DNA from: Acidimicrobiales bacterium
GTDB taxonomy: Bacteria; Actinomycetota; Acidimicrobiia; Acidimicrobiales; Bog-793
Length of the DNA: 64,000 nt
Assembly (NCBI GenBank): GCA_050012675.1
Contig: JBEKGS010000004.1
Coordinates: 481 to 64,480, forward strand
Direction of reading: 5' to 3'
Shown here one piece after another: positions 5,354 to 20,466 of the stretch. Made by a program: the position numbers and the translations under genes. Every line of letters starts with the position of its first letter. Position 1 is the first letter of the stretch. Under the pieces are notes generated by a model. The model was not told the origin of the DNA and did not search any database. It was given only the letters and a program-made list of their open reading frames with translations.

Positions 5354-5360
5354 CAAGACG

Positions 5361-5376
5361 GGCCCCGTACGGGGCC
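5361..5376 (+). terminator. GC-rich hairpin directly after the hydroxylase stop (terminator-like, no clear U-tract)
   Basis: 'GGCCCCGTACGGGGCC' forms a 6-bp G/C stem with a GTAC loop, 8 nt after the TGA at 5351-5353. It sits between convergent genes. Confidence 0.4.
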
Positions 5377-5626
5377 TGGTGCACTTAGGAAGTTCACCGA
5401 CTACCCATTGACAGGGGGCACCCTTTCCAGGGAGCGGCCTCGCTTTCATACGAACCCGTCGCCGTTGGTTGCTCAATGTGGCGCGGAAGAAGCGGCGCCC
5501 GTGCCAACCCGCTCCTTAGCGTGACCATCGGGCCGGGACGATCGACGACGGAAATGACGGCAAACCTAGGAGGGCTCCCAGCCGGCGAAGAGGGTTTTCT
5601 GCGCTTCGAGCCTTAGTCCATACCTG

Positions 5627-6460: not shown

Positions 6461-6538
6461 TGTGCCCGGTACGGAAGGTCATCGAGCGCAAGATCCTGTT
6501 CGCTGGGCCGGCCCGAAGGGCGGGGGCTCGCCCGATCC

Positions 6539-7603
6539 TCAGATCACGGCGGCGGCCCGCCGAGCGGCGTGGGCCTGCTTCAAGGTGGCCACGGTCTTGG
6601 AGTTGTGCCGCACCGCGACGATCTCTGCCAAGATCGATACAGCCAGCTCTGGCGGAGTCTCGGCGTCAATATTCATGCCGACCGGGGTGAACAAGGCGTC
6701 TATCCGGGCCGGGTCGAATCCCTCCTGATGCAGTTGTTCGACCATCATCCGCGTCTTCCGGGCACTGCCCATCACTCCGACGTAACGGGACTTCCGCGGC
6801 AGCACAGCCCGGACGCAGGTCAGATCCAAGCCGTGGTTTCTCGTGACGATCACGATGTAGGTCGAAGTGTCTAGGGGCAGCTGCGCGATCACCTGGGTGA
6901 ACTCGCCGTGCATCCTGTCGACCTCAGGGGGGAAACGATCCGGACCGAGGAGTTCGGCCCGGTCGTCCACCACCGTGATCTGGAAGCCGAGCGGCGCTGC
7001 CGCGAAGGCCAGGGCCTGTCCCACGTGACCGGCGCCCAAGATCACTAGTTTCTCCTCGGGCACCAAGGGGTCGTAGAAGACGCCGGCATCGCGATCGAAC
7101 CTGGGTTCGCCGGTGAGGAAGGCACGGGCCGCCACGTCGGCTTTCCAGTCCCGGAAATCACCAGCGATCTGCCTGCCTCCTTCGTCCACCAGGGCGGTGA
7201 CGACTTCTAGGGACTCCTGTCCATCAAGGATCTTCTTGATCGAGAGAACCCGCTCTCCGCGCGCCAGCCGCTCCTGGATCTGGCGGTAGGTGCCGGGCTC
7301 AGTCACGCGCTCGATGAGGACCGTGCTCGTTCCGCCGCATACCCCGCCGGGGTCGAGGATGGTCGCGCCCCGGCTCTCGATGTGCAGCAGGGTCGGCTGG
7401 CCACTCGCGAAGCACTCCCAGCAAGCCGCCAGCGCCCGGGCTTCCGGATGTCCGCCTCCGATGCTGCCGGTCGAGCCGCCATCGGGAGTCACCAGCATCT
7501 TGGAGCCTGCATGGCGTGGGGCCGAGCCTCTGACGTCAAGGATGGTCGCCAGGACGAGGGGCGCCTGGGCTGTGGCGACAGCCTGGAGTAGATCCCCTCT
7601 CAC
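6539..7603 (-). CDS. xdhC: XdhC/CoxI-family molybdenum-cofactor insertion/sulfuration chaperone
   Basis: N-terminal XdhC_CoxI block 'LATILDVRGSAPRHAGSKMLVTPDGGSTGSIGGG'; Rossmann block 'LVILGAGHVGQALAFAA'; C-terminal 'GVMGSARKTRMMVEQL...GMNIDAETPPELAVSILAEIVAV'. GTG start with AGGAGA 5 nt upstream. Confidence 0.85.
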   Translation of the reverse strand: MRGDLLQAVATAQAPLVLATILDVRGSAPRHAGSKMLVTPDGGSTGSIGGGHPEARALAACWECFASGQPTLLHIESRGATILDPGGVCGGTSTVLIERVTEPGTYRQIQERLARGERVLSIKKILDGQESLEVVTALVDEGGRQIAGDFRDWKADVAARAFLTGEPRFDRDAGVFYDPLVPEEKLVILGAGHVGQALAFAAAPLGFQITVVDDRAELLGPDRFPPEVDRMHGEFTQVIAQLPLDTSTYIVIVTRNHGLDLTCVRAVLPRKSRYVGVMGSARKTRMMVEQLHQEGFDPARIDALFTPVGMNIDAETPPELAVSILAEIVAVRHNSKTVATLKQAHAARRAAAVI

Positions 7604-8366
7604 CGTGTCTCCTGGCGCTCGTCGAGCACCGCTGCGGCGGCGTCCTTCCGGAACGACCTCGGGTAGCGGCTACGCCGGCGCGGCTGGTCGGGGCAGGCGT
7701 CGTTGCCTGGTGCCATGACACTTTGCTGTTCGGAGTGTGCGGCATGAAACGAACGCATGAGAACACGATCAAGGCCCCTGCAGCCCGACCGGTGAGAAGC
7801 GTCACTACTGGGAATCATCAGGCCTCAGGTCGATCGGCTGCGTAAGAAGGCTTTAGCCTCATGGGGAAACGCTCGAGGGCGTAGCTTAGGGCGACAAGAC
7901 CGTTGAACAAAGGCGCTTCCGCACAGCTCAGGATAGACATAACGTGCGAGGTCGGGCGATGACGGATCAGAGAGGCGGCGTGAGTGAGTGCAGCCACCGC
8001 GCCGGAAGGCGCTTTGCCGCAGCGGCGTCGTCCCTCCTCTGCCGCCGGCCCGCCACCGGTGGAGAACTGCCAAGCGCCCTCGTAGCGTGAGGCCGGAGGT
8101 GGCGACTCGTCGGAGGTCGATCGCGGCGACGCGAGGCGAAAGTCCGAGCGCGCGCCGCTTCGCCTCGGAAAAGACCCCGGCGGGTCTTGCGGCGTCCGTT
8201 AGCCATAAGTATCGGGCGAAGGGACGGAGCGTCGCCTCTGGTAGCTTGGCAGGGCAAGCGGCGTGTGGAACCCGAGCTCGCCAACCGGCGAGCCGGGCCG
8301 GGGGGCTGCGAACCGGTCGAGGTGCTAGATGTCAGGTCCGCGGTCGTGAACCGCCCGGAGAGCCAC

Positions 8367-9131
8367 ATGAGCATTGGCGATGCCATCCACTTGCTCCTGC
8401 CTCTCTCTGGTGCCGTGGTCTCGATCGTGGGAGCGGGCGGCAAGACGACGGTCTTGTTCGAGTTGGGCGAGAGCCTTGCCAATCGCGGTTCGAACATACT
8501 CCTCACGACTACCACGAACATCTTCGACCCTCGCGTGGAGCCGGATCGGCAGTTCGATCACGTGCTGTTAGAGGCCGGTCTGGCTGAACCTTTCGAAGAG
8601 CCGGGACCGTTCCAAGAGCCGGGCGTAATCCCCCCCTTCCTTGAGCACGGAACTTCTCCTGAGACACGGGGACGGCTTATCGTCCTGGGCTCTCGCGAGG
8701 TGAAAGGTGCGGACAAGCTCCAAGGGATCCATCCCAGTTGGATGGCGAGGCTGAGTCGGGATTGGGCCTACGTGCTTGTGGAAGCAGACGGCGCCAAGGG
8801 CCGGTCCATCAAAGCCCCCGGAGATCATGAACCCGTCGTGCCGCCGTCGACAGGAGCCGTGATCGGCGTTGTCGGCTTGGATTGCCTGGGGCGCCCCATG
8901 GACGGGGCTACCGTCCACCGCCCGGAGCGCTTCCAGGCGGTGACCGGCCTGGCCGCCGGACCCCTGGAGACAGATCTGACCGCTGTCTGCTCGCACGAGG
9001 GATCAAATATTCCGGGACACGTCCTGATGCTCGCATTCGCTTCCGGCTTTGGGACAGGAGATTCGGCCGTGGGGCCAGGCATCGCCGAAGAGCCGCCCGG
9101 ATCCATGCTGAGGTTCGGGGCCTGCCGATGA
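8367..9131 (+). CDS. yqeC: Selenium-dependent hydroxylase accessory protein YqeC (P-loop protein)
   Basis: 'VVSIVGAGGKTTVLFELGESLANRGSNILLTTTTNIFDP' and 'YVLVEADGAKGRSIKAPGDHEPVVP' are YqeC-family signatures. I chose the ATG at 8367 inside track ORF 8187..9131. The stop overlaps the next start (ATGA 9128-9131). Confidence 0.8.
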   Translation: MSIGDAIHLLLPLSGAVVSIVGAGGKTTVLFELGESLANRGSNILLTTTTNIFDPRVEPDRQFDHVLLEAGLAEPFEEPGPFQEPGVIPPFLEHGTSPETRGRLIVLGSREVKGADKLQGIHPSWMARLSRDWAYVLVEADGAKGRSIKAPGDHEPVVPPSTGAVIGVVGLDCLGRPMDGATVHRPERFQAVTGLAAGPLETDLTAVCSHEGSNIPGHVLMLAFASGFGTGDSAVGPGIAEEPPGSMLRFGACR

Positions 9132-10261
9132 TCTACCTCGACAACGCGGCGACCAGCCATCCCAAGGCTCCGGGCGTGGCAGAGGCCATGGTGCGCTTCA
9201 TGACCGACACCGGAGCGAGCCCCGGCAGGGGCACCCATCCCCAGGCCCAGGCGGCGGACCGCCTACTTTTCGCGGTGCGGGAGCGCTGCGCCGCGTTCCT
9301 GGGGGTACCCGAACCCGAACGCCTCGTGTTCACCAAGAACGCCACGGAAGCCCTCAACCTGGTGCTCATGGGCCAGGTGCCTGCCGGAGGCTCGGTAATT
9401 CTGAGCTCGTTGGAGCACAACGCGGTCATGCGTCCTTTGCACTACCTGGAAGCCCACCGGGGCGTGCGGCTATCTCAGATCCCTTTCGACGCCTGTGGCC
9501 GCCCGGATCCCGAGTCCCTCCGCGTGGCGACGGCACGGCCGGCGGACCTCTTCGTCTTGACTGCCGCGAGCAACGTGACCGGCTGCATCACGCCCGTCGC
9601 AGAAGTCTCACGCCTCTGTAGACGGGCTGCGATCCCTCTTTGCGTCGACGCCAGCCAGGCTGTGGGCCATGTGACGCTGCCCATGGATGGAGTCAGCTTC
9701 CTGTGCTTCTCCGGCCACAAGGGGATGCTCGGGCCCGTTGGCACCGGAGGGCTGTACCTCGCGCCCGGATTTCATCCTGAGCCTCTCCTGCGCGGAGGGA
9801 CGGGGAGCCAATCCGAAAGCGAAGAGCAGCCCGACTTCCTGCCCGATCGTTACGAGGCTGGAACTCTCAACCTCGTAGGACTGGCGGGTCTGCTTGCGGC
9901 CCTGGACTTCCTCGAGGCCCGAGGTCCCGCCAGTATCCGCGAGCGGGAGGCGTCTTTGTGCAAGCGACTGCTCGGCGGCATGCTGGATCTTCCCGGCGTC
10001 TCTTCGCCAGGGCCCGAGCCCGGCGCAGCTCGCGTGCCCGTCGTTTCACTGTCGGTTGATGGCCAAGATTTGGGGGAGATTGGCCTTGAATTCAACCGGC
10101 GGGACATAGCAGTGCGCGTGGGTCTGCATTGTGCGGCCGCCGCCCATCGCAGCATCGGCACCTTCGGGGCGGGCGGAACCCTGCGGTTCTCACCGGGCTT
10201 CGCTACCAGTGAGGAAGAGATCGACGCGGCCATCGAGACCTTGGAGGCGATCCTTAGATGA
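9128..10261 (+). CDS. Class-V aminotransferase, cysteine desulfurase / selenocysteine lyase-like (EF2568-type member of selenium-hydroxylase loci)
   Basis: 'MIYLDNAATSHPKAPGV'; PLP-lysine block 'FSGHKGMLGPVGTGGLY'; active-site Cys block 'RVGLHCAAAAHRSIG'. Coupled on both sides by ATGA overlaps. Confidence 0.85.
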   Translation: MIYLDNAATSHPKAPGVAEAMVRFMTDTGASPGRGTHPQAQAADRLLFAVRERCAAFLGVPEPERLVFTKNATEALNLVLMGQVPAGGSVILSSLEHNAVMRPLHYLEAHRGVRLSQIPFDACGRPDPESLRVATARPADLFVLTAASNVTGCITPVAEVSRLCRRAAIPLCVDASQAVGHVTLPMDGVSFLCFSGHKGMLGPVGTGGLYLAPGFHPEPLLRGGTGSQSESEEQPDFLPDRYEAGTLNLVGLAGLLAALDFLEARGPASIREREASLCKRLLGGMLDLPGVSSPGPEPGAARVPVVSLSVDGQDLGEIGLEFNRRDIAVRVGLHCAAAAHRSIGTFGAGGTLRFSPGFATSEEEIDAAIETLEAILR

Positions 10262-11298
10262 GCGATTCTCCGGCGTTGACGACCTACACTCGCTTCTCCG
10301 GCTGCGGCGCGAAGCTCGGCCCAGGGGTGCTCGACGAGGCGCTGTGCGGACTTGAACAGCCCGCCTACCCGCAGCTTCTGGCTGGGTTCTCCAGCTTCGA
10401 GGACGCGGGGCTTTTCCTTTTGGACGACGGTCTCGCACTGGTGCAGACCGTGGACTTCTTCCCACCCATTGTGGACGACCCGTACATGTTCGGGCGCATC
10501 GCCGCCGCCAATGCTCTCTCGGACGTGTACGCCATGGGTGCACGTCCCCTCACAGCCCTCTGCCTCGTCTGTTTTCCCCTCAAGAGTCTGGGCCTGGACA
10601 GCTTGAAAGCCATGATGGAAGGTGGCCTGGACGCTCTGACCGAGGCTGGTTGCGCCTTGCTAGGGGGGCACAGCGTCGAGGATGCGGAACCGAAACTGGG
10701 CTACGCCGTGACCGGGCTGGTCGATCCCGAAAGAGCCTGGCGCAACAACACGCTTCGACCCGGAGCTGCCTTGATCCTCACCAAGCCTCTCGGCACAGGA
10801 CTCCTGAACATGGCGCTGAGAGCTGAGTGCGCGAGCGAGGAAGCTCTGAACCTCGCTCAGACGTCGATGGCCCTGCTCAACAAGCGAGCAGCGGAGATTC
10901 TGGCGGAGGGCGACGTCTGGGCATGCACAGATGTCACGGGCTTCGGCTTGGCCGGTCACGCCGCCGAGATGGTGGACGGCGCGCCTTGCGGGCTGAAGAT
11001 CCGGTACGCCGATCTGCCGCTGATCCCCGGTGTGGAGGAATGGGCCGCCATGGGACTCGTCCCCGAGGGCACCTTCCGGAACAAGCAGGGCCGCATACGC
11101 TGCATCGAGAACGTCGATGCCCTCGATCCGGTCATGCTCGACATCCTCTTCGACCCCCAGACTTCCGGAGGCCTGCTGGCTGCTGTTCCCGTCGATCGGG
11201 CGACGCAGCTGCAGAAGGACTTGAGAGCCGAGGGAGTGTCCGCAGCCCTGATCGGCGAGACTGGTGGGTTGCCGGGCACCGTGGAGATCCTCGTCTGA
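10258..11298 (+). CDS. selD: Selenide, water dikinase (selenophosphate synthetase), Cys-type
   Basis: N-terminal 'LTTYTRFSGCGAKLGPGVLDEAL' (active-site Cys-Gly-Ala-Lys; Cys, not an in-frame TGA). AIR-synthase-like blocks: 'DDPYMFGRIAAANALSDVYAMGARPL', 'LLGGHSVEDAEPKLGYAVTG', 'ACTDVTGFGLAGHAAEM'. Confidence 0.9.
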   Translation: MSDSPALTTYTRFSGCGAKLGPGVLDEALCGLEQPAYPQLLAGFSSFEDAGLFLLDDGLALVQTVDFFPPIVDDPYMFGRIAAANALSDVYAMGARPLTALCLVCFPLKSLGLDSLKAMMEGGLDALTEAGCALLGGHSVEDAEPKLGYAVTGLVDPERAWRNNTLRPGAALILTKPLGTGLLNMALRAECASEEALNLAQTSMALLNKRAAEILAEGDVWACTDVTGFGLAGHAAEMVDGAPCGLKIRYADLPLIPGVEEWAAMGLVPEGTFRNKQGRIRCIENVDALDPVMLDILFDPQTSGGLLAAVPVDRATQLQKDLRAEGVSAALIGETGGLPGTVEILV

Positions 11299-11570
11299 TG
11301 ATGGTTTTGGCGACTTTCCTGTCCACACACGCGGCTCTTCGAGCTGAACAGGAACTGACGGGGGAGTTATCCGTGGAGCTGATCCCCGTGCCTCGCCAAA
11401 TTCGCAGCGACTGTGGATTTGGTCTCCTTGTTGGCCCGCTGGACCCTCCCGGGGCTGGCCGCGCCGCGGAGATCCTCAAGGGTAAGGGCGCCACAGGCCT
11501 CTGGCGCGTCTTCGAACTGGATTCACCGACCTCGCGGCGCAAGGAGAAACGCTATGAGCTCATCCCGTAG
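11298..11570 (+). CDS. DUF3343-family small protein (putative Se/S carrier-like)
   Basis: 'MMVLATFLSTHAALRAEQEL...ELIPVPRQIRSDCGFGLLV' resembles the DUF3343 pattern (beta-alpha start and 'P.P..I...CG..I'). The ATG overlaps the selD stop (TGATG). The family commonly neighbours selD/yedF. Confidence 0.6.
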   Translation: MMVLATFLSTHAALRAEQELTGELSVELIPVPRQIRSDCGFGLLVGPLDPPGAGRAAEILKGKGATGLWRVFELDSPTSRRKEKRYELIP

Positions 11571-12180
11571 GGTCCTAGATGCTCGGGACCTCGCTTGCCC
11601 GCAGCCCGTGATTCTGACCCGCAAGGCCCTTGCCGAGGGCGGTTTCAGTGAGCTGGAGGTGATCGTGAACACCATCTCCGCAAGAGAGAACGTCGCTCGC
11701 TTCGCCGGCCATGCGGGCTGCACCATCGGCGGCATCGAAGAGTCCGGCGAGGAGACGCGGATCGTGATCCAGCCGGCCGCGGCCAACTGGTCCGACTCGA
11801 CCTCAACGGAATCCATCACCGACGCCACGGTGCCCCTCGTGGAACCCGGCATCCAGACCGTCTTCCTCTCCAGCCGGACCATCGGGAGAGGCGATGACGA
11901 ACTAGGCGCCCTGCTCATGCGGGCCTTCCTCTACACCCTTAGCGAGTCCGAAACTGTCCCTCAACGGGTGCTGCTCATGAACAGCGGAGTAACGCTGGCG
12001 GCCGAAGCCTCAGAGCATCTCGAGAACTTGCGGCGTCTTGCCGATCTTGGTGTCGAGATCTACGCCTGTGGCGCCTGTCTCGAGTTCTACAAGCTCACGG
12101 ATCAGCTGGCCGTGGGCCAAGTCTCGAACATGCAGGAGATCACTGAGTTTCTGCTCCAAGGCAAAGCCCTCTGTCTGTAG
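11554..12180 (+). CDS. yedF: Selenium metabolism protein YedF (TusA/SirA-like N-domain with CPxP motif plus DsrE-like C-domain)
   Basis: 'RVLDARDLACPQPVILTRKAL' is the TusA-type CPxP motif. C-terminal 'VFLSSRTIGRGDDELGALLMRAFLYTL...VLLMNSGVTL...LGVEIYACGACL' is DsrE/YedF-like. The ATG at 11554 overlaps the end of the DUF3343 gene by 17 nt. Confidence 0.75.
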   Translation: MSSSRRVLDARDLACPQPVILTRKALAEGGFSELEVIVNTISARENVARFAGHAGCTIGGIEESGEETRIVIQPAAANWSDSTSTESITDATVPLVEPGIQTVFLSSRTIGRGDDELGALLMRAFLYTLSESETVPQRVLLMNSGVTLAAEASEHLENLRRLADLGVEIYACGACLEFYKLTDQLAVGQVSNMQEITEFLLQGKALCL

Positions 12181-12606
12181 AGGCATAGACCTGAAGACGC
12201 GCCTCACCAATGAAGCGGCCAGGTCCCAGATCGTCTCGCGTGTCGTACGTGGGAAAGGCCCTTTCGACATGCTGCAGGTCTACGCGCCCGTAATGCCGGG
12301 AGCGCTGACTCCCAGGGGCACGCCGACCGAGGGTCCGAGAGTATTGGTTGGCACTCAGGACGTGCTTGAGACCTGAAGACGGCGAAGCCGCCGAGCGGAT
12401 CGAAACACCTACTGTGCCCGCCAACTAGCGAACTGGGATTCGACTGGGTGTCGGATGGGCGAACGCGTACTCACCGATCTCGAGGGTCGCTTGTGCGAAT
12501 CCCAGGCGTAACTCAGCGCGAGAACGAAGCGTCGACTTCAACGGGGTCGGTTCCAGCCGGCGACCCGCTCGAGCCGGACCCGGTTCGACGTAGCAGACTG
12601 GAGACC

Positions 12607-15081
12607 ATGGCTATCACCGCGGTCGACCCCTCAACTGGAGCGGGGCGCACATCTGCGGCGTCAGTTCCGGACGGTGGGGAGAGCGCCCATCTGCCTTTGC
12701 TGAAGGTGCGGGGCCTTTCCATGGCCTACGGCGACCTCCAGGTCCTGAGCGACGTCGACTTCGAGGTGGCGACCGGCGCGCTGGTCGCGCTGGCGGGCGA
12801 GAACGGTGCCGGCAAATCGACCCTTGTTCGTTGTATAGCCGGGGACACCATCCCCGATGCCGGGGAGGTGGCCCTAGACGGGGTGCGGGTCCGCTCCAAT
12901 GCCGCGGCCGCCTCCGCCGGACTGGCCGTGGTGTGGCAGGACGCTGCTCTGTGCGACAACCTGGACGTGGCCAGCAACCTGTTCCTGGGCCGCGAGCGGG
13001 GCCGGTGGTTCACCGCCGACGCCAAGAACACTCTCGCCACCAAGGCCATCCTCGCTTCGTACGGGATAAAGCTGGACAGCGGCCGCCGGGTTCGCTCGCT
13101 GTCCGCCGGCCAGCGCCAGTTGGTCGCCGTGGTCCGGGCCATCCAGGCGCGACCGCGGTTGCTGGTGCTGGACGAGCCCACGGCGTCGCTCGGCGTGCAG
13201 GAGGCGCGCCAGGTCGAAGAGCTCATAATGAAATTGAACGCCGAGGGCACCACCATCCTGTTGGTGTCCCATGATGTCGACCAGGTCTTTCACCTGGCTG
13301 ACCGCATCCTCGTACTCCACGGGGGGCGCATTGTCGCGGACCTGTCCCCCTCGCAGACCCACCCCGAAGACGTCGTGGCCATCATGTCGGGTCACACCCC
13401 CGACGCCAGCGCCCGCCGCCAGTTCAACCGTCTGCAGACCCTGGTCGACCAGCTCGCCTCGGCTACGCCCAACTCGACCCTGCCGTTGGTCCTGTCGGCG
13501 CTGGCTTCGGTGCTCAGCATCGAACAGCTCTGCCTCCACCTCTCCGAGGAACGCAGCCTGCGCCTGGTGGCCAGCGCCGGCCTGCCACCCCCGCTCGTGC
13601 GGGCCTGGGCGTCCGTGCCGATGGGCGCAGAGGGTGGCCCGATGGGCATGGTCGCCGAGAACAAGCGGGTTGTGGTCGTGGAGGACATCGACAGGAGTGA
13701 CTCCTGGGAGCGCTTCGCAGCTCTGGGGCGAGGCGCCGGCATTCGCAGCAGCTGGTCGGTGCCCCTGATTGGCGCGAGCGGACTTATCGGGGTGATAACC
13801 GGGTGCCAGCCGTTCGTGGGGCGGCCGCAGCGTGACCAGATGGACCTCGTGTCGCTGTACGCGGGCTACGCCGCCGGCGCCATCGAGCGTGACCGCCTGT
13901 TCGGCGAGGTGACGGCGCGCAACCGCGTGCTCGAGACCATCCGCGAGGTGCTAGAGACGCTGGCGGGTCCCGAACAAGTGTCCAAGGGCCTGGTCCTGGC
14001 CCTGCAATCTCTGCAGCGGGGGCTGCGCGCCACGGAGATCGAGCTGTGGTCGCGCGTTTCGGCCGGCCTTCCCCGCTGCACGGCCTGCGTCACTGCCGAC
14101 AACCTGGGGTACTGGGAACCGCCGCGGCGCGACGCCGCCGACGCCATACGCGCCTTTTCCGGCCCGGCACCCGTCTACAGCCCCCGTATCCTGCGCCCCG
14201 GGGCGACGGGTCAGGTGGTGGCCACCGCCTTTGACGTCCCGGGCGGCCGGGCTGCGCTCATTGCCCGATGGGAGGCTCCATTGCCCGACGATGCCCTCGC
14301 CCTGCTGGCCGACGGCGCCCACTCGGTGCGGTTGGCCCTGGAACGGGACGAGGCCGAACAGGCTCACCAGCAGACGGCGGCCTTGCGCCGGTCGAACCGG
14401 CTGCAGCGCGATTTCCTTTCCCGTCTGAGCCACGAGCTGCGCACGCCGCTCACGGCCATCCGCGGCTACGCCAGCACCCTGCTGGCGCCGGACGTGACCT
14501 GGGACGACGAGTCCAAGCTGCGTTTTTTGAGCCGCATCGCGAGCGAGTCGGCCCGCCTAGGCAGGCTGGTGGGCGACCTGCTCGACTTTTCGGCCATAGA
14601 GGCCGGACTGCTGCGCCTGCAGCCGGACTGGTGCGACCTCCACTTGGTGCTCGAAGCGGCCGTCTCATGCCTACCGCCCGGCCCGTCCCAAGCCGTCACC
14701 ATCGAGTGCCCACCGTCGATCGGCCCCGTCTGGGCTGACCATGACCGCCTCGAGCAGGTATTCGTAAACCTGCTGGACAATGCCGTGCGCCACAACGACA
14801 GCGACATCTGCATCAGGGTGACGGTATCCCCGGGCGGCAATGAGACGGTGGCGGTCCGGGTGGCCGACAACGGCCGCGGCCTGCCTCCGGAGCTGCGCGC
14901 CCGCCTGTTGGACTCTCAGGGGCACGGGGCCATCAGCGACGACGGCGCCGGGCTCGGCCTGTCGATCGCCCGCGGCATCGTGCGGGCGCACGGCGGTCAC
15001 CTAGGCCTGGAGAGGTCGGAACAAGGGACATGTTTCCTCATCGTGCTCCCCGTCGAGGGCCCCGGAGGATACCTCGCATGA
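12607..15081 (+). CDS. Soluble hybrid protein: ABC-transporter nucleotide-binding domain :: GAF x2 :: HisKA :: HATPase_c histidine kinase
   Basis: NBD motifs: 'GENGAGKST', 'VVWQD', 'LSAGQRQ', 'LLVLDEPTASL', 'LVSHD'. GAF-like segments: '...RLVASAGLPPPLV...VVVVEDIDRSD...SSWSVPLIGASGLIGVITG...'. H-box: 'FLSRLSHELRTPLTAIRGYAS'. N/G boxes: 'NLLDNAVRHN', 'VADNGRGLP', 'GAGLGLSIARGIVRAHGG'. No hydrophobic TM segment. The ATG at 12607 (GGAG 5 nt upstream) is preferred; the track start is 12448. Confidence 0.85.
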   Translation: MAITAVDPSTGAGRTSAASVPDGGESAHLPLLKVRGLSMAYGDLQVLSDVDFEVATGALVALAGENGAGKSTLVRCIAGDTIPDAGEVALDGVRVRSNAAAASAGLAVVWQDAALCDNLDVASNLFLGRERGRWFTADAKNTLATKAILASYGIKLDSGRRVRSLSAGQRQLVAVVRAIQARPRLLVLDEPTASLGVQEARQVEELIMKLNAEGTTILLVSHDVDQVFHLADRILVLHGGRIVADLSPSQTHPEDVVAIMSGHTPDASARRQFNRLQTLVDQLASATPNSTLPLVLSALASVLSIEQLCLHLSEERSLRLVASAGLPPPLVRAWASVPMGAEGGPMGMVAENKRVVVVEDIDRSDSWERFAALGRGAGIRSSWSVPLIGASGLIGVITGCQPFVGRPQRDQMDLVSLYAGYAAGAIERDRLFGEVTARNRVLETIREVLETLAGPEQVSKGLVLALQSLQRGLRATEIELWSRVSAGLPRCTACVTADNLGYWEPPRRDAADAIRAFSGPAPVYSPRILRPGATGQVVATAFDVPGGRAALIARWEAPLPDDALALLADGAHSVRLALERDEAEQAHQQTAALRRSNRLQRDFLSRLSHELRTPLTAIRGYASTLLAPDVTWDDESKLRFLSRIASESARLGRLVGDLLDFSAIEAGLLRLQPDWCDLHLVLEAAVSCLPPGPSQAVTIECPPSIGPVWADHDRLEQVFVNLLDNAVRHNDSDICIRVTVSPGGNETVAVRVADNGRGLPPELRARLLDSQGHGAISDDGAGLGLSIARGIVRAHGGHLGLERSEQGTCFLIVLPVEGPGGYLA

Positions 15082-15085
15082 AGCC

Positions 15086-15790
15086 ATGACTTCGACTACA
15101 AGACGCACCAAGGCTCTGCTGGTGGAGGACGACCCCAATATCGTCGATCTGATCCGTAGCAACCTCATCGTGCGTGGCTTCGACACCTGCGTCTCGCCCG
15201 ATGGGTCGCGCGCCCTGCAGATGCTCGAGACCGAGGCGCCCGACATCGTCCTGCTCGACTTGATGCTGCCCGATGCTGACGGCTTCGAGCTGTGCCGGCA
15301 GATGCGCGAGCGTTCGGGTGTGGGCATCATCGTCGTGTCCGCCCGGGGCGGCCAGCACGACAAGGTGGCCGCCTTGAACTTTGGCGCCGACGACTACTTG
15401 ACCAAGCCCTTCAGTATCGAGGAGCTGCTGGCCAGAATCACCGCCACCCTGCGGCGCACCCGTCCCGCCGAGCCGGTCGATGCGTCGCCGTTGTGCATCG
15501 AGGTCGGCGACCTCGTAGTCGACTTGGAGAAGCGCCTGGTTACACGGGGTGGCGAAGTCGTGCACTTGACCCCGACCGAATTCTCCCTGCTGCGTGAGCT
15601 CGCCGTCGATCGGGGCAAGCTGCTCAGTCACGCCGAGCTCTTGCGGCGGGTCTGGGGGCCGGGCTACGCCACCGAGACGGAGTACGTGCGCGTCTATGTG
15701 CGCCGCCTGCGGGCAAAACTGGAAAAAGGTGGTGGTCCTCCGGTGATCATCACCCAGCCCCGCGCCGGGTACCGGTTCGTGCCGGGATAA
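15086..15790 (+). CDS. OmpR/KdpE-type response regulator (receiver plus winged-helix)
   Basis: 'ALLVEDDPNIVDLI...PDIVLLDLMLPDADGFELC...GADDYLTKPFSIEELLARI' and C-terminal 'LTPTEFSLLRELA...VRVYVRRLRAKLE...GYRF'. Starts 4 nt after the kinase stop. Confidence 0.9.
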   Translation: MTSTTRRTKALLVEDDPNIVDLIRSNLIVRGFDTCVSPDGSRALQMLETEAPDIVLLDLMLPDADGFELCRQMRERSGVGIIVVSARGGQHDKVAALNFGADDYLTKPFSIEELLARITATLRRTRPAEPVDASPLCIEVGDLVVDLEKRLVTRGGEVVHLTPTEFSLLRELAVDRGKLLSHAELLRRVWGPGYATETEYVRVYVRRLRAKLEKGGGPPVIITQPRAGYRFVPG

Positions 15791-15798
15791 CTCAGAAT

Positions 15799-15857
15799 CG
15801 TTACGGATGTTCACGGTTTATTAATGCTCACTCCCTCACGTTCACGTTTCGTTAACA
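15799..15857 (+). promoter_or_regulatory. Candidate response-regulator binding / promoter region: clustered direct repeats of a (G)TTCACG/GTTACGG-type motif in a low-GC spacer
   Basis: 'CGTTACGGATGTTCACGGTTTATTAATGCTCACTCCCTCACGTTCACGTTTCGTTAAC'. GTTACGG and GTTCACGG lie about 10 bp apart. TCACGT occurs in tandem at 15836-15847, about 31 bp from the first TCACG. OmpR-family regulators typically bind direct repeats with helical periodicity. No experimental support. Confidence 0.3.
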
Positions 15858-16044
15858 ATTACCGGTCTATCTTCCCCTTGCCGGAGCGATTCGACATCAC
15901 TCCGGCCAGTTCGCAGGGCGCACGCTGTCACAGACGTGCGGCGGCTCCTCTCGGTGCAAGTGTCGAGGGAACCCGACCTGGGCGGACGCGGACCAATTTG
16001 GCAACCAACTCCACAACTTCTGAAGGAAGCAAAAGGGAGAGAGC

Positions 16045-17295
16045 ATGAAAATGTCACACAAGGGACGGGCGGTCGGCGCCGCGACGGTCACCCTGGCCGT
16101 GTTGCTCGGGGCCGCGGCCTTCGGCATCCAGCCCGCCTCGGCCCATGGTATGGGCGTCGCGTCCCAGAGCGCGGGCATCACGGCCACCAGCTTCAATCGC
16201 AACTTCAGCGCTATGTCGCTGCTCAAGGCCGTCGCGGCCAAGGGCACCGGTGGCGTCACGGCTATCCTTCCTGACACGGTCTCCTCGACCCGCTACGTCG
16301 AGTTCGACACGCCGTTCCTCATGGAAGCCATGGAGAAGGCCGGTTTGCCACCCACCGACACCTACGTCGAGGACGCCGATGGCAGCGACGCCACCGAGCT
16401 GTCGATGGACCAGGCGGCCGTCACCGCCGGTGACAAGGTCGTCATCATGGACCCGTTGGACTCAGGGGTCGGGGCCAAGATCGAGTCGTACAACGCCGCC
16501 CACGGTGTGGCGACCGTCGACTACGACCGCCTGACCCTTGGCGGCCAGCGCAAGTACTACGTCAGCTTCAACAACGAATACGTCGGCACGCTGCTCGGTG
16601 ATGGCCTCGTCAGCTGCATCTCGACCTGGAAGGTCGCCAAGCCGACTGTTCTGGTCATGCACGGCGCGCCCACTGACAACAACGCCACGTTGTTCGCCGA
16701 CGGTTACGACACCGTCCTCGCCCCGTACTTCAAGAGTGGCAAGTGGACCCTGGTTGGCAAGCTGGCCGCCATGGGAGGTCAGGGCGAAGTGCCCGCTGGC
16801 ACCTGGACGCCGAGCGTTGCCCTCACCGAGTTCGAGGGTGAGTTCACCGCGAACCCAAGCATCAATGCCGTGCTCATGCCCAATGACGAGAACGGCGCCC
16901 CGATCATCCACTGGCTGATCACTGCCAAGGGTCTCAAGCCGCGCACCATTCCTTTCACCGGCCAGGACGCGACCTTGACGGGTCTCGGCAACGTGCTCAA
17001 CGGGTACCAGTGCGGAACGGTGTACAAGCCGATCTACGAGGAGGCGCAAGCAGCAGTGGCCATCGCGCTGTACCTCCGTGCCGGCATGGCCCCGCCGGCC
17101 GCCCTGGCCAACGGCAAGACGCTGGACTCCGTAGAGCACAAGCAAGTCGACTCTGTGCTCCTCACGCCCGAGTGGGTGACCAGCAAGAACATGAAGTCGA
17201 CGGTCATCGCCGACCAGTTCGTGCCTCCGTCCAGCCTGTGCTCGTCGCCGTACTCGACCGTAGCGGCCTGCAAGGCAGCGGGCATCACGCCCTAG
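16045..17295 (+). CDS. Sugar ABC transporter substrate-binding protein (periplasmic-binding-protein type I, XylF/ChvE-like), secreted
   Basis: Signal peptide 'MKMSHKGRAVGAATVTLAVLLGAAAFGIQPASA'. PBP-I blocks: 'DKVVIMDPLDSGVGAKIE', 'VATVDYDRLTLGG..YYVSFNNEYVGTL', 'INAVLMPNDENGAPII', 'FTGQDATLTGLGNVLNGYQCGTVYKP'. RBS AAGGGAGAG upstream. Confidence 0.85.
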   Translation: MKMSHKGRAVGAATVTLAVLLGAAAFGIQPASAHGMGVASQSAGITATSFNRNFSAMSLLKAVAAKGTGGVTAILPDTVSSTRYVEFDTPFLMEAMEKAGLPPTDTYVEDADGSDATELSMDQAAVTAGDKVVIMDPLDSGVGAKIESYNAAHGVATVDYDRLTLGGQRKYYVSFNNEYVGTLLGDGLVSCISTWKVAKPTVLVMHGAPTDNNATLFADGYDTVLAPYFKSGKWTLVGKLAAMGGQGEVPAGTWTPSVALTEFEGEFTANPSINAVLMPNDENGAPIIHWLITAKGLKPRTIPFTGQDATLTGLGNVLNGYQCGTVYKPIYEEAQAAVAIALYLRAGMAPPAALANGKTLDSVEHKQVDSVLLTPEWVTSKNMKSTVIADQFVPPSSLCSSPYSTVAACKAAGITP

Positions 17296-17315
17296 CCGGT
17301 AGCCGCTGAGTCATC

Positions 17316-17376
17316 GCAACAACGCCTGGGCTGTTATTACCTGCAGCCCAGGCGCTTGCGTTGTTTGCAATTTTCC
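17316..17376 (+). terminator. Intercistronic stem-loop / partial terminator between the binding-protein and ATPase genes
   Basis: A perfect 11-bp stem, CGCCTGGGCTG (17323-17333) / CAGCCCAGGCG (17344-17354), with a 10-nt loop. It is extended by imperfect GCAACAA/TTGTTTGC pairing and followed by T-rich 'TTGTTTGCAATTTTCC'. This is a typical arrangement for over-expressing the binding protein relative to membrane components. Confidence 0.45.
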
Positions 17377-17506
17377 AGCGACCGTTCTACTTTCCGGGCA
17401 AACGGTCCTCGTTGCGAGGAGCGGCTGTCTCGCTCCTGGGTCGCCGCTGGCCGAGACGGGCGAGCCTGTGGCGAGGCGAGGTGCCGCGAGGAGGACAGAA
17501 ATCGGT

Positions 17507-18352
17507 ATGGCTGTTTCGATGCAAGAGGCTGGCCTCGGGGCTGGGGCCGAAGGGCTGTTGCCGCGTGGGCGGCCCCTTCTGGAATTGCGGGGCGTCCAGA
17601 AGAGCTTCGGCCCTGTCCGGGCCCTGGCCGGAGTCGACATCGTGGTGCCCGCCGGAGAGGTCACCGCGCTGTGCGGAGACAACGGCGCTGGCAAGAGCGT
17701 GACCATCAAGATCATTGCGGGCATCCACCCCGCCGACGGAGGGCAGATCCTTTGGCGCGGGCACCCGGTCTCCATCCGCACCCCCAAGGACTCCGCCGCT
17801 CTCGGCATCGCCACCGTGTACCAGGATCTCGCCTTATGCGACAACCTCGACATCGTCCAGAACATGTTCCTCGGTCGTGAGCCGACCAAGCTCGCTGTCC
17901 TGGATGAGGCGCCAATGGAATTAGCGGCCCGCAAGACTCTGGCCGACTTGCACGTGACGACGGTGCGTTCGATCCGCCAGCCCGTTTCGTCCCTGTCAGG
18001 GGGACAGCGCCAGTCCGTCGCGGTCGCCCGCGCTGTCCTGTGGAACTCGCAGCTCATGATCCTCGACGAACCGACCGCCGCCCTCGGGGTGGCTCAGACG
18101 GCGATGGTGCTCTCTCTCGTGAAGCGCCTGGCCCAGCAGGGCTACGCCGTGATCATCGTGTCCCACAATCTGAACGACCTGTTCGAGGTCGCCGACAACA
18201 TCGCCGTCCTGCGCCTGGGCCAGATGGTCGCTCAGGCCCCGGTTTCGCAGCTTGACCGCCAGAGCGTGGTCGAGCTGATGACCTCCGGCACGGTGGGAGG
18301 AAAGCCGTTCGTCGCAGCGCCGGCGGCGGGGCCTGGGGGGTCTCAGCCATAG
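17507..18352 (+). CDS. Sugar ABC transporter ATP-binding protein, single-cassette (FrcA-like), 281 aa
   Basis: 'LLELRGVQKSFGPVRALAGVDIVVPAGEVTALCGDNGAGKSV', 'TVYQD', 'LSGGQRQSVAVARA', 'LMILDEPTAALG', 'IIVSHNL'. ATG at 17507 with GAGGAGGA upstream. Confidence 0.9.
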   Translation: MAVSMQEAGLGAGAEGLLPRGRPLLELRGVQKSFGPVRALAGVDIVVPAGEVTALCGDNGAGKSVTIKIIAGIHPADGGQILWRGHPVSIRTPKDSAALGIATVYQDLALCDNLDIVQNMFLGREPTKLAVLDEAPMELAARKTLADLHVTTVRSIRQPVSSLSGGQRQSVAVARAVLWNSQLMILDEPTAALGVAQTAMVLSLVKRLAQQGYAVIIVSHNLNDLFEVADNIAVLRLGQMVAQAPVSQLDRQSVVELMTSGTVGGKPFVAAPAAGPGGSQP

Positions 18353-18540
18353 CAACACGTCAACCGCCTGCAGGCGGACCTCCTGTTCCAGGCTCGGGGG
18401 ACACTGTTCACAGCGGCCCCGCCGCTGCCGACGCCTCCAATGGCGATGACTTCGCCAGCTCACCGAGTGACCGATCCGACCTATCGATCTCGCCCCCTGA
18501 CGGCGCCCGCGCTCGCCTGGCGAACGCCGCCGCGGGTCCA

Positions 18541-19863
18541 ATGACTCCTCCCGGCTCGGGCGCGCCCGAGTTCGAAATCGAGCTCGAAAGAGAGGAGGGG
18601 GAGGAGGAGGTGCCGACGGAATCGGTCATCGTCGCGGCGCCCGAGGTAGTCGCGACCACCCTCGGCGAGTACGTGAGTGCCTGGTGGCGCAAGGCCCGCT
18701 CCGGCGACAGCGGCGTCCTTCCGGTTGTCGTAGCGCTGGTCTTGATAGTCGTCGTCTTCCAGATCCTCCGGCACAAGTTCCTCTCCGCCGGCAATCTCGT
18801 CGACCTGTTCAACCAAATGGTCGTTTTCGCCCTCTTCGCCATGGCCGAGGTCTTTGTCCTGCTGCTCGGCGAGATCGACTTGTCGGTCGTCTACAACGCC
18901 GGCATCGGTGCCGGCCTCATGGCCGCTTTGGTGGCGCCGCCTTACAACCTGCCTTGGTGGCTGTGCATCGTGATCGGCGTGGGCACATGTACCTTGATCG
19001 GCCTCGTCCTGGGCACACTCATCACGCGGCTACGGCTACCGGCGTTCATCGTCACGCTCGCCGCCTTCTTGGGCCTTGAGGGCGTGATGCTGTGGATGTT
19101 CGACCGCTTCAGCGTCGCCGTCGGTGGAGTGATCGAGGTTTCGAACCCGACACTCACCAACCTCGTGGCTGGCAACATCTCCGTGTTGGTCAGTTGGGTG
19201 GTCATGGCCGTACTGGTGCTGGCTTTCGGCGTGTACAGCGTGGTCCGCGACACGCGCCGCCGCGCCTCCGGGCTGGTTACCCCACCCCTGGGCTTCACGC
19301 TGCTCAAGTCGGCTGCCGTGGCCGGAGCGGGCGTGGTCGTGGTAGTTGTTTGCAGCTTCAACCGGGGCACGACGACATTCGTAGCGCGAGGCGTCCCCTG
19401 GTCGATACCGATCTTGCTGGCCATCTTCGCAGGGGCCACCCTGCTGCTGTCGCGCACTCGCTTTGGCCGTTATCTATACGCCATCGGCGGCAACACCGAG
19501 GCTGCCCGGCGCGCCGGTATCAACGTCACCCGGATCCGGACCATCGCCTTCGGGTTGACGGGGATGATGGCCGGCTTCGCAGGGATGATGTACCTGTCGT
19601 TGCTGGGGTCGATCGCCACCGACATCGACCCGAGCTACATGTTGTTCGCCGTCGCCGCCGCCGTCATCGGGGGCACCAGCCTCTACGGCGGCCGAGGCAA
19701 AGCGCTGCACGGCATCCTTGGTGGACTAGTCATCGCCACGGTCTACAACGGCATCTTCCTCATGGGATTCGGGGCGGATGTGGAGTACATGATCGTTGCC
19801 GTAGTGCTCCTGGCCGCCATTGCGGTGGACTCTTTGACCCGCGGTGGGCAGAGGGCGCGCTAA
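18541..19863 (+). CDS. Sugar ABC transporter permease (XylH/RbsC-type, CUT2)
   Basis: About 10 hydrophobic segments. Conserved C-terminal block: 'RFGRYLYAIGGNTEAARRAGINV...AVIGGTSLYGGRGKALHGILGGLVIATVYNG'. Acidic, disordered N-terminal tail. Confidence 0.85.
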   Translation: MTPPGSGAPEFEIELEREEGEEEVPTESVIVAAPEVVATTLGEYVSAWWRKARSGDSGVLPVVVALVLIVVVFQILRHKFLSAGNLVDLFNQMVVFALFAMAEVFVLLLGEIDLSVVYNAGIGAGLMAALVAPPYNLPWWLCIVIGVGTCTLIGLVLGTLITRLRLPAFIVTLAAFLGLEGVMLWMFDRFSVAVGGVIEVSNPTLTNLVAGNISVLVSWVVMAVLVLAFGVYSVVRDTRRRASGLVTPPLGFTLLKSAAVAGAGVVVVVVCSFNRGTTTFVARGVPWSIPILLAIFAGATLLLSRTRFGRYLYAIGGNTEAARRAGINVTRIRTIAFGLTGMMAGFAGMMYLSLLGSIATDIDPSYMLFAVAAAVIGGTSLYGGRGKALHGILGGLVIATVYNGIFLMGFGADVEYMIVAVVLLAAIAVDSLTRGGQRAR

Positions 19864-19870
19864 GGCTAGA

Positions 19871-19904
19871 GGTCCCGAATCGAAATGATTTCCGGACCAT
19901 TTTC
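19871..19904 (+). terminator. Terminator-like hairpin after the permease gene
   Basis: GGTCCCGAA (19871-19879) pairs with TTCCGGACC (19890-19898) with one C.C mismatch, followed by ATTTTC. It starts 8 nt after the stop codon. Confidence 0.35.
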
Positions 19905-20466
19905 GCAGGGTCAGGTCAGTGACTTCGTCAAGCAGGGTTGGCGCGACGCCGCGGCGCCTACGTCTGCAGCAGGGAGTCGGGCTCATGTTCGTCACAAGAG
20001 CGGCAGTCGCTGTTGGCAACACGTTGGCCAGGTACTCATGAGAAGGGCTACGGAGCGCGCAATGGCAGATGGGCCAGCCCGGGAGTCGCGAGTCCCGCTA
20101 TGGGTCGAGTGGCGGCGCGATCGGTAATCTCTTCGCCCCGCGGTGCACCGGTATTGGAAGCCACGACCGCCTCGGCGCCGCTTTATCGCAGGGCAGTAGG
20201 GATGAGATTGTCTCAAGCGAACCACAACACCTTCTGTACCCCAAGGGGTACAGCTGTTATCCGACACCGTCGAAGACGTCCGACTGCGGGACAGCGGTGA
20301 TGCTGTTGCGGCGTTTGCGCCCTTACCGAGTTCGACAAGCAGCGGGGGAGCGCACTCAAGAGCGGCGGGCGCCGCTCATCCTTATGTGCTCCGGCACCGC
20401 TTGCCCGGGCCGTTAAGGCCCCGCCATCGAAGGGCTGACCGACAACTCGGTTTCAATGACTGCCGT

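Follow-up and report, generated by a model that had tools for sequence, protein, structure and literature searches.

In the transporter-kinase pairs known so far, among them BceAB-BceS, PstSCAB-PhoU-PhoR and DctA-DcuS, the contacts between transporter and kinase are non-covalent and hard to trap, and how information is transferred from a transporter to a sensor kinase is an open mechanistic question. The system described here lies in a stretch of 64,000 nucleotides (nt) from an Acidimicrobiales bacterium (GenBank assembly GCA_050012675.1, contig JBEKGS010000004.1, positions 481 to 64,480 of the forward strand), called the window below. It consists of a soluble histidine kinase with a complete ABC nucleotide-binding domain (NBD) at its N-terminus, an OmpR/PhoB-family response regulator, and the binding protein, ATPase and permease of a CUT2-type sugar importer (Table 1). 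The five genes probably constitute a dedicated regulatory and transport module in which the NBD serves as the input, and the novelty would reside in a soluble kinase whose covalently attached input is the cytoplasmic motor domain of an ABC importer that has kept its catalytic residues. An earlier note on this DNA, made by a model from the sequence alone, had stated that no characterised kinase was known to carry the NBD itself, and no description of an ABC-NBD histidine kinase was found in the full-text literature either, subscription-only papers lying outside the search.

The precedents for kinases that read ABC transporters are the Bce and the Pho systems (PMC8534201, PMC6978683). In BceAB-BceS of Firmicutes, which the present module would resemble in this respect, a kinase without a sensing domain of its own reads an ABC transporter and an OmpR-type response regulator controls the operon, with all genes adjacent to each other (PMC8534201, PMC6978683). 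However, BceS is a separate kinase, embedded in the membrane by two transmembrane helices and with a minimal loop, that contacts the permease BceB, whereas the kinase described here has no transmembrane helix and carries its NBD covalently. The transporters also differ: the Bce pump serves resistance to peptide antibiotics and its permease is of FtsX type with a large extracellular domain, whereas the locus described here encodes a CUT2 sugar importer that has a binding protein and a permease of the BPD_transp_2 family. In PstSCAB-PhoU-PhoR, a kinase without an extracytoplasmic sensor is informed of the importer's state at the NBD, PstB (PMC6978683), and the operators of the Pho system share with the locus a grammar of paired 11-nt direct repeats, with GTTCACC as the core in Streptomyces (PMC4415409). 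In contrast to the present kinase, PhoR is anchored to the membrane and its contact with the transporter is indirect, through PhoU and a PAS domain, whereas here the NBD is in cis and of CUT2, not PstB, type. Neither protein reached the level of the Pho families, the kinase scoring 122 bits against the 334 of TIGR02966 and the response regulator 190 against the 296 of TIGR02154.

A third related system is KdpD/KdpE, in which the kinase has an N-terminal nucleotide-binding domain and a GAF domain before the dimerisation and histidine-phosphotransfer (DHp) domain, and an OmpR-type response regulator controls the adjacent transporter operon. Moreover, the N-terminal domain of KdpD acts directly on the cognate transporter (PMC11018627). 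Unlike the kinase described here, KdpD contains KdpD_N and Usp domains and four transmembrane helices and its partner is a P-type ATPase; only the transmitter of the present kinase resembles KdpD, and its N-terminal domain is a bona fide ABC NBD. Covalent recruitment of a transporter part as the input of a kinase is known from KsAmt5 and from the SLC5/STAC kinases CbrA and CrbS (PMC8534201, PMC9100948). In those proteins, however, the fused part is a solute-binding membrane permease, whereas here it is the cytoplasmic motor ATPase, with no membrane segment. Another parallel is provided by MalK, in which a C-terminal extension below the NBD dimer couples the state of the transporter to gene regulation, together with MalT and EIIA-Glc. 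In both proteins the NBD comes first and the extension is at the C-terminus, but that of MalK comprises only a small regulatory domain, by which a separate activator is sequestered, whereas here it is an entire GAF-sensor-kinase transmitter.

Regarding the overall fold, the best structural match of the whole chain was with the bacteriophytochromes 8upk and 9eut, with which the kinase shares tandem GAF folds, long helices leading to the DHp and the catalytic ATP-binding (CA) domains, and a parallel-dimer spine. Unlike these PAS-GAF-PHY proteins with their bilin site, it shows no Pfam match to PAS or PHY, has around 16% identity to them, carries an ABC NBD in the N-terminal position and has a poorly conserved second sensor domain. 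The transporter genes are of the CUT2 family (TC 3.A.1.2), represented by RbsABC, XylFGH and GguAB/ChvE: the binding protein is XylF/ChvE-like, the permease is GguB-like, and for both the kinase NBD and the ATPase the highest scores were obtained with the N-terminal cassettes of YtfR, AraG, XylG and RbsA. However, typical CUT2 ATPases are tandem proteins of around 500 amino acids (aa), whereas those of the modules described here are mostly single cassettes of around 280 aa, with a third cassette on the kinase. The module belongs functionally with transporter-coupled two-component sensing and also with kinases fused to transporter parts, and is a member of none of those families, as it also lacks a route through PhoU and a PAS domain.

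The reading frame of the kinase is uninterrupted from GTG 12448 or ATG 12607 to its stop, the GTG being the less likely start; the 824-aa form from the ATG fits the N-termini of the homologues and equals the database protein P0001. The NBD matched Pfam ABC_tran with 100.4 bits (cut-off 25) and contains an A-loop tyrosine (Y41), Walker A GENGAGKST (aa 64-72, nt 12796), Q-loop VVWQD from aa 108 (Q111), signature LSAGQRQ (aa 165-171), Walker B LLVLDEPTASL from aa 185 with the catalytic E190, D-loop SLGV and H-loop LVSHD from aa 219 (H222), so that it is apparently functional and catalytically competent. Its top NCBIfam matches were the N-terminal halves of YtfR (7e-57), AraG, XylG, GguA, LsrA and RbsA, by which the NBD is assigned to the CUT2 sugar-importer type; it remained below the equivalog cut-offs of this group because it is a single cassette, one being present in the kinase and another in the adjoining ATPase. 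No NCBIfam model reached its cut-off for the whole kinase. In the AlphaFold2 (AF2) model, with a mean predicted local distance difference test (pLDDT) of 82, the NBD was modelled at a pLDDT of around 90 and matched isolated solved NBDs in Foldseek with a TM-score of 0.83.

Downstream of the NBD and a linker helix, a GAF domain is followed by a long connecting helix (aa 409-453) and by a second alpha/beta domain of sensor type, which is GAF/PHY-like by its position between two long helices and by its topology, and for which no Pfam match was obtained. The C-terminal transmitter exceeded the Pfam cut-offs for HisKA (5e-19, 68.4 bits) and HATPase_c (7e-23, 81.7 bits), with the H-box SHELRTPLTAIRGYAS at aa 608 and the phosphoacceptor H609 within HELRT, a motif consistent with bifunctional HisKA kinases. 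The nearest solved sequence of the transmitter was KdpD (6lgq, 8.7e-32), and when the GAF domain and the second domain were compared by sequence with the PDB, only the transmitter was matched. In the structural comparison, the part from the GAF domain to CA superimposed best on the GAF-PHY-kinase portion of 8upk and 9eut, over around 680 C-terminal columns. No transmembrane helix was detected along the kinase, the highest 19-residue hydropathy (1.82) falling within the first GAF helix. The earlier note had described a single 824-aa frame from ATG 12607, the ABC and kinase motifs including the H-box, and a protein free of transmembrane helices, all of which agree with the reading-frame call and the identity to P0001, with the motif positions and with the hydropathy profile. 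Of the two GAF-like segments that it had proposed, the first corresponds to the Pfam GAF domain, whereas the second is recognisable as a sensor-type alpha/beta domain in the AF2 model and not by Pfam.

To what extent this architecture is shared was analysed in at least 120 clusters of related proteins and in at least 487 species-level genomes (one genome per species), the locus counts given below being drawn from the best 80 of these genomes. The listed clusters matched the kinase at 54-100% identity and nearly all showed the full Pfam set, the exceptions being short entries. An exhaustive HMMER search of 1.8 billion representatives at 50% identity retrieved around 25-30 full-length fused representatives down to 39% identity, below which fragments, unrelated giant kinases and ordinary tandem sugar ATPases of around 500 aa appeared. 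All of the best 80 genomes are metagenome-assembled and belong to uncultured Actinomycetota (Acidimicrobiales, 'Streptosporangiaceae' metagenome-assembled genomes (MAGs) and Solirubrobacterales). The family carries only automatic names such as 'ATP-binding cassette domain-containing protein [Acidimicrobiales bacterium]'. The architecture is therefore common, a case that the earlier note had considered together with its being already described; it is found only in uncultured Actinomycetota among the best 80 genomes, and no functional description of it was encountered in the full-text literature that was open to searching.

In an alignment of 108 members, 13 key residues (the Lys and Ser/Thr of Walker A, the Q-loop Gln, three signature positions, the Walker B Asp, the catalytic Glu, the H-loop His, the H-box His and the N and G1 boxes) were intact in 105, bearing out the earlier statement that the catalytic residues are preserved. 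Residues H609, N721, N725, D754, G756, G758 and G784 were invariant, and the A-loop position was Y or F in a smaller alignment of 18 sequences inspected by eye. The three remaining members (P0054, P0059 and P0119) show a degenerate signature or H-loop, for example LSSVELK and H222R in P0054, and may be drifting towards a non-hydrolysing NBD. In the same 108 sequences, 10 of the 21 columns of the linker region (aa 266-286; 48%) were at least 95% invariant, and the connecting helix (63%) and the DHp domain (60%) were the best-conserved parts of the spine; motifs and linker were retained even in members at 39-44% identity. The second sensor domain was by far the least conserved region (10% invariant columns), whereas the helices on either side of it rank with the best-conserved elements; the domain may serve as a spacer in the structure or bind a ligand specific to each lineage.

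As the source of the sequence is a metagenome-assembled genome, the possibility was considered that a sequencing or assembly artefact, or a read-through in gene calling, had joined an ATPase gene to a kinase gene, a risk that the earlier note had also pointed out. In three loci (L013, L016 and L015 (10787-12467), the latter being the closest relative with 92% identity) the kinase gene is indeed split, frameshift-like, into two overlapping high-scoring segment pairs in different frames, giving rise to the halves P0070 and P0073, but these breaks are not at the NBD-GAF junction, and the genes concerned either are pseudogenes or contain frameshift errors typical of MAGs from long reads. In contrast, more than 100 assemblies, obtained independently in many studies and on many sequencing platforms, show the open frame and a highly conserved junction and linker, even where identity falls to 39%, so that conservation reduces the chance of an artefact to practically nil. 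Therefore, the fusion is genuine and under selection, as it is conserved across at least 120 clusters and at least 487 species genomes. Candidates for NBD-less forms of the kinase were discarded, since the starts of these shorter matches among the representatives are scattered between positions 146 and 449, as if they were fragments at contig edges. Two further entries, P0249 and P0255, join a CUT2 permease and a tandem ATPase in one polypeptide, in either order; their NBD matches are unrelated to the kinase family.

The association with a transporter was equally conserved. The response regulator was directly downstream of the kinase in all 75 loci with enough sequence, and the binding protein, ATPase and permease followed on the strand of the kinase in 59 of 60 loci, the exception being L040, considered below. 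In one locus the transporter is inverted. The linkage extended to members at 39-44% identity, thus answering the question, raised in the earlier note, of whether homologues are linked to transporters: P0153 (39%) keeps the same five-gene order, and in P0144 the response regulator and then the binding protein follow the kinase. The locus of a more distant member (L083, 3860-10668; P0157, 41% identity) differs from the main group in gene order and in ATPase type, as the response regulator is followed by the permease, the binding protein and an ATPase of 501 aa with the classical tandem NBDs, the only such ATPase among the modules, although the linkage to a transporter is kept. At least six loci (L027, L037, L047, L049, L050 and L072; around 13.7-18.8 kb) have two permease genes and one single-cassette ATPase, that is, a heterodimeric membrane part, along with a more divergent binding protein (around 43% identity), and this subgroup may differ in substrate specificity. 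Apart from the five genes, no gene family recurred in more than 14 of the 80 loci, so that the unit is self-contained and offers no catabolic clue to the sugar; an inference of the substrate from the neighbours was consequently dropped, the binding protein being only XylF/ChvE-like.

The response regulator was recognised by Response_reg (96.5 bits) and Trans_reg_C (73.8 bits), with the acceptor Asp in VLLDLML and with an acidic pocket and conserved Lys visible in its sequence, and was below all the NCBIfam equivalog cut-offs (MtrA, RpaB, PhoB and KdpE). It starts 4 nt past the kinase stop (TGA AGCC ATG), the distance that had been given in the earlier note. Between it and the binding-protein gene, two operator-like direct repeats were found (Table 1), with a TATCTT -10-like hexamer at 15868, 11 nt downstream of the second; repeat 2 is the sole exact match within the 64-kb window. 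In the equivalent spacers of the other loci, GTT(C/A)AC repeats appear with a period of 11-12 nt, in many cases in two pairs separated by 31 or 42 nt. This grammar was present on the sense strand in 52 of 71 equivalent spacers (2.3 per kb) and only once in all the other locus sequence (0.0004 per kb), around 5000-fold enriched in the spacers, whereas shuffled sequences would give around 0.05 loci. In addition, two or more GTT(C/A)A(C/A) half-sites were found upstream of the kinase gene in none of 79 regions. The layout matches that of PhoB/PhoP operators, with paired 11-nt direct repeat units and, in Streptomyces, the core GTTCACC (PMC4415409). As the repeats are specific to the spacer between the response regulator and the binding protein, the transporter operon is the likely target of regulation, whereas the kinase-response regulator pair is probably not autoregulated through this motif. 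The spacer had been described as a low-GC one of 254 bp; the length is right, but the dip in GC content is modest (0.60 vs. 0.65-0.70), with around 70 AT-rich nt at its beginning.

The adjacent ATPase was aligned with the kinase NBD by BLASTP at 41% identity over 240 aa (E 9e-55; kinase 30-264, ATPase 36-275 of the 294-aa form), confirming that both are co-linear up to the cassette's C-terminal end. In the related genomes, the median identity was 65% among orthologues of the kinase NBD and 70% among those of the ATPase, so that the former is almost as constrained as the true ATPase, and orthologues within each group were at least 50-62% identical. Between kinase NBD and ATPase of any genome the median was 42% (range 36-48%), compared to 37% for either of them against the N-terminal cassettes of tandem CUT2 ATPases, and against their C-terminal cassettes it fell to 30% for the kinase NBD and 28% for the ATPase. 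The adjacent ATPase would thus be the nearest known relative of the kinase NBD, only slightly ahead of the tandem N-terminal halves, and by these values the split between both appears ancient, predating the divergence of the three actinobacterial classes. To say that the kinase duplicates the ATPase of the transporter, as the earlier note did, is therefore too strong, and they are better described as ancient paralogues. The phylogeny that it had suggested in order to date the duplication, built by neighbour-joining with tandem CUT2 ATPases as comparators, recovered the ATPases as a clade (98 of 100 bootstraps) and gave no date, as the sister relation of the kinase NBD and ATPase had 12 of 100 and only the identity ranking of 42% vs. 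37% vs. 30% is usable.

The Q-loop cleft of ABC transporters takes up the coupling helix of the permease, and in the kinase NBD it is the most conserved non-catalytic part. Among the 108 relatives, 13 of its 25 columns (52%) were at least 95% invariant, a share that was 32% in the NBD as a whole and 7% in the remainder of the helical subdomain. In more than 90% of 60 genomes, the residues QDLALCDNLD..N..LG.E of this cleft were found both in the kinase NBD and in its cognate ATPase. In the permease, an EAA-type coupling-helix motif was found (YAIGGNTEAARRAGINV, aa 313-329), whose helix NTEAARRAGINV is the candidate partner for cleft residues 106-130, and the motif YAIGGNxEAARRAGI/V was almost invariant across at least 60 loci. 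Conservation on both sides fits a docking partner shared by the kinase and the ATPase, and the groove for the coupling helix, on whose presence the earlier note had made its proposal depend, is kept as the most conserved surface of the NBD.

Since the kinase is soluble and has no transmembrane helix, a partner, the transporter, would be needed for it to sense an extracellular sugar. The fusion point is always at the C-terminus of the NBD, the end which, in NBDs of the MalK type that carry a regulatory domain there (e.g. 2r6g), faces away from the membrane. According to the mechanism proposed here, the kinase would be a soluble parallel dimer like other HisKA kinases, with a helical spine of bacteriophytochrome type, and its two N-terminal NBDs would dock on the coupling helices of the CUT2 permease, replacing the free ATPase or competing with it. 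When a sugar-loaded binding protein engages the permease, the kinase NBDs would close around ATP as in the transport cycle, and this closure would be relayed through the linker helix, the GAF domain, the connecting helices and the DHp domain to shift the balance between kinase and phosphatase. The phosphorylated response regulator would then bind the GTT(C/A)AC repeats before the binding-protein gene and switch on the transporter operon. Permease docking, the direction of the signal, the local response regulator as the protein that binds the repeats and activation as its mode of action are the parts that we infer, whereas the domains with their intact motifs, the conservation in the family, the near-obligate linkage to a CUT2 transporter and the operator-like repeats specific to the module are observed. 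ATP hydrolysis may also gate autophosphorylation and the GAF domain may receive a metabolite, as the earlier note had suggested. Taken as a whole, a transporter-coupled sensor, in which the kinase docks on the permease, substrate-gated NBD closure controls its output and the response regulator induces the operon, is the reading tentatively preferred from the sequence comparisons, with a chance that we put a little below even. The more specific proposal that the kinase is an alternative subunit of the importer, with NBDs that bind the permease and a substrate-gated ATP cycle that drives the kinase switch through the spine, is possible but still doubtful.

Several observations weigh against the transporter-coupled sensor. 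One locus (L040, 12567-22469), the sole such case, has the kinase and the response regulator without a transporter within 10 kb downstream, the neighbours encoding an Ig-like-domain protein, an aldehyde dehydrogenase and a sigma factor. Every complete module has its own free ATPase, so that transport does not require a motor on the kinase, whose NBD would have to contend for the permease. Covariation between the cleft and the coupling helix gave no signal, both being nearly invariant across 60 loci, and some of the cleft positions (..N.FLGRE) are shared by CUT2 ATPases at large, so that common descent and the mechanics of the ATPase, instead of a retained interface, may account for part of the conservation of the cleft. 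The arrangement of the domains in the AF2 model is unreliable (predicted TM-score (pTM) of 0.40), with low pLDDT at the ends of the linker helix (aa 267-271 and 282-289). Given their resemblance to the Streptomyces PhoP box GTTCACC, the repeats could be bound by a global PhoP-type regulator and not by the local response regulator. Finally, all the members shown come from uncultured organisms.

Some of these observations lend themselves to other explanations. The locus without an adjacent transporter, together with the full solubility of the kinase and the presence of a GAF domain, would suit an NBD that works without contacting the transporter, either as an autonomous cytoplasmic switch dimerising with ATP or as a sensor of ATP/ADP, and tunes uptake to the energy state, to a metabolite bound by the GAF domain or to both; ABC NBDs do operate without membrane partners in ABC-F proteins and in SMC/Rad50. 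This is however an unlikely account, as the affinity of NBDs for ATP is usually far below the cellular ATP level, which makes them a poor energy gauge, and it leaves unexplained why the NBD is of the CUT2 type, why its permease-facing cleft is conserved and mirrors that of the cognate ATPase, and why the CUT2 linkage is kept in 59 of 60 loci across three actinobacterial classes. That the cleft is the same in the kinase NBD and in the free ATPase, which would compete for the permease, could also mean that the signal flows in the reverse direction, with the kinase NBD plugging or braking the permease post-translationally in addition to transcriptional control. Such an analogue of KdpD-KdpFABC would agree with a kinase core closest to KdpD (6lgq) and with the post-translational inhibition of the cognate pump by the N-terminal ATP-binding domain of KdpD (PMC11018627). 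The kinase has no KdpD_N or Usp domain, though, and a plug does not need intact catalytic residues. Sensor kinases are moreover usually far scarcer than transporter subunits, so that stoichiometric inhibition looks improbable, and we consider a brake very improbable.

The close relationship between both NBDs, which are mutually closest by identity (42% vs. 37%), raises another alternative, namely that the kinase NBD and the free cognate ATPase form an ATP-sandwich heterodimer, on or off the membrane, through which the kinase gauges whether the ATPase is idle or engaged, and hence the demand for transport. Both proteins have the canonical Walker A, signature and D-loop (LGV) required for head-to-tail dimers, and the ATPase is mostly single-cassette, unlike typical CUT2 ATPases. 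Nevertheless, in the locus with the 501-aa tandem-NBD ATPase (L083) this protein fills both NBD sites itself, which argues as well against a kinase whose role is just to provide a 'missing' second cassette. In a dimeric kinase, the NBDs of the two subunits would already be close to each other, favouring closure as a homodimer, and the strongest shared conservation is in the permease-facing cleft and not specifically in the dimer interface. A heterodimer thus seems improbable, about as much as the autonomous switch.

If the kinase NBD does dock on the permease, the module would offer a tractable system to follow how NBD closure is converted into kinase output, would add a new entry to the input domains of two-component systems and could be used in the design of synthetic sensors for the substrates of any binding-protein-dependent importer. 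And should the kinase act as an alternative importer subunit, it would represent the first transporter motor domain that itself serves as a two-component input domain, a 'sensor version' of a sugar transporter which reports an extracellular substrate with no membrane or extracellular segment in the kinase. Evolution has fused a kinase covalently with that part of an ABC importer which undergoes the conformational cycle and has kept this fusion in hundreds of soil actinobacterial species, and a large family automatically annotated merely as 'ATP-binding cassette domain-containing protein' is in fact one of signalling proteins.

Table 1. Coordinates of the module genes, kinase domains and regulatory elements in the window.
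Feature	Position	Strand	Basis or remark
Histidine kinase gene, 824 aa	12607..15081	+	ORF, Pfam; 100% identical to database protein P0001 (824 aa)
Complete ABC NBD of the kinase, aa 30-260	12694..13386	+	Pfam ABC_tran 47-193, 1.7e-28
Q-loop cleft segment, aa 106-130, AVVWQDAALCDNLDVASNLFLGRE	12922..12996	+	
Linker helix NBD-GAF, aa 268-285, SARRQFNRLQTLVDQLAS	13408..13461	+	AF2 prediction, conservation
GAF domain, aa 286-427	13462..13887	+	Pfam GAF_2 9e-13 (above its cut-off), GAF 2e-7
Second alpha/beta sensor-type domain, aa 458-555	13978..14271	+	AF2: helix 458-473 and six strands
Transmitter: HisKA/DHp aa 600-667 and HATPase_c aa 711-817 (N, G1, G2 boxes)	14404..15057	+	Pfam
OmpR/PhoB-family response regulator, 234 aa	15086..15790	+	Response_reg and Trans_reg_C
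Spacer between response regulator and binding protein, 254 bp	15791..16044		
Operator-like direct repeat 1, GTTCAC-N5-ATTAAT	15809..15825	+	
Operator-like direct repeat 2, GTTCACGTTTCGTTAAC	15840..15856	+	31 nt after repeat 1
Sugar-type substrate-binding protein, 416 aa, signal peptide	16045..17295	+	Peripla_BP_4
Strong hairpin with T-rich tail between binding-protein and ATPase genes	17312..17363	+	RNAfold -33 kcal/mol
Single-cassette CUT2-type ABC ATPase, 281 aa	17507..18352	+	ABC_tran 3.5e-27
CUT2 permease, 440 aa	18541..19863	+	BPD_transp_2, GguB-like

The transporter genes themselves are as described in the earlier note, with a binding protein, a 281-aa single-cassette ATPase and a permease, all supported by Pfam and NCBIfam. 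The nearest solved relatives of the binding protein were the xylose-binding protein of E. coli (3m9w, 5e-33) and ChvE (3urm). Binding proteins of actinobacteria are usually lipoproteins; the one encoded here (16045-16200) has a signal peptide without a lipobox cysteine in the first 50 residues. The ATG of the ATPase gene is preceded by a GGAGGA ribosome-binding site, an alternative GTG at 17468 giving a form of 294 aa, and its best NCBIfam matches were the N-terminal halves of YtfR, XylG and RbsA.

Regarding signals in the non-coding regions, the hairpin between the binding-protein and ATPase genes was not picked up by a simple terminator scan; judging from the predicted fold, it probably acts within the operon as an attenuator or a partial terminator and sets the stoichiometry of the subunits with a surplus of binding protein. 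An Rfam scan by E-value of positions 12000-20200 gave nothing credible as a riboswitch or known RNA in the spacers, and a search for sigma-70 consensus promoters found none, such a scan being uninformative for an actinobacterium of 65% GC.

The module is flanked in the window by unrelated genes, a selenium/molybdenum-hydroxylase cluster and oxidoreductases. Upstream (2336-12180) are encoded a molybdoenzyme of the xanthine dehydrogenase family (2336-5353, forward strand), XdhC (6539-7603, reverse strand), a class-V aminotransferase (9131-10261), a SelD-like protein of the AIRS family (10258-11298) and a TusA-DsrE fusion (11554-12180), the last three on the forward strand, a gene set that looks like a cluster for the maturation of a selenium-dependent molybdenum hydroxylase.

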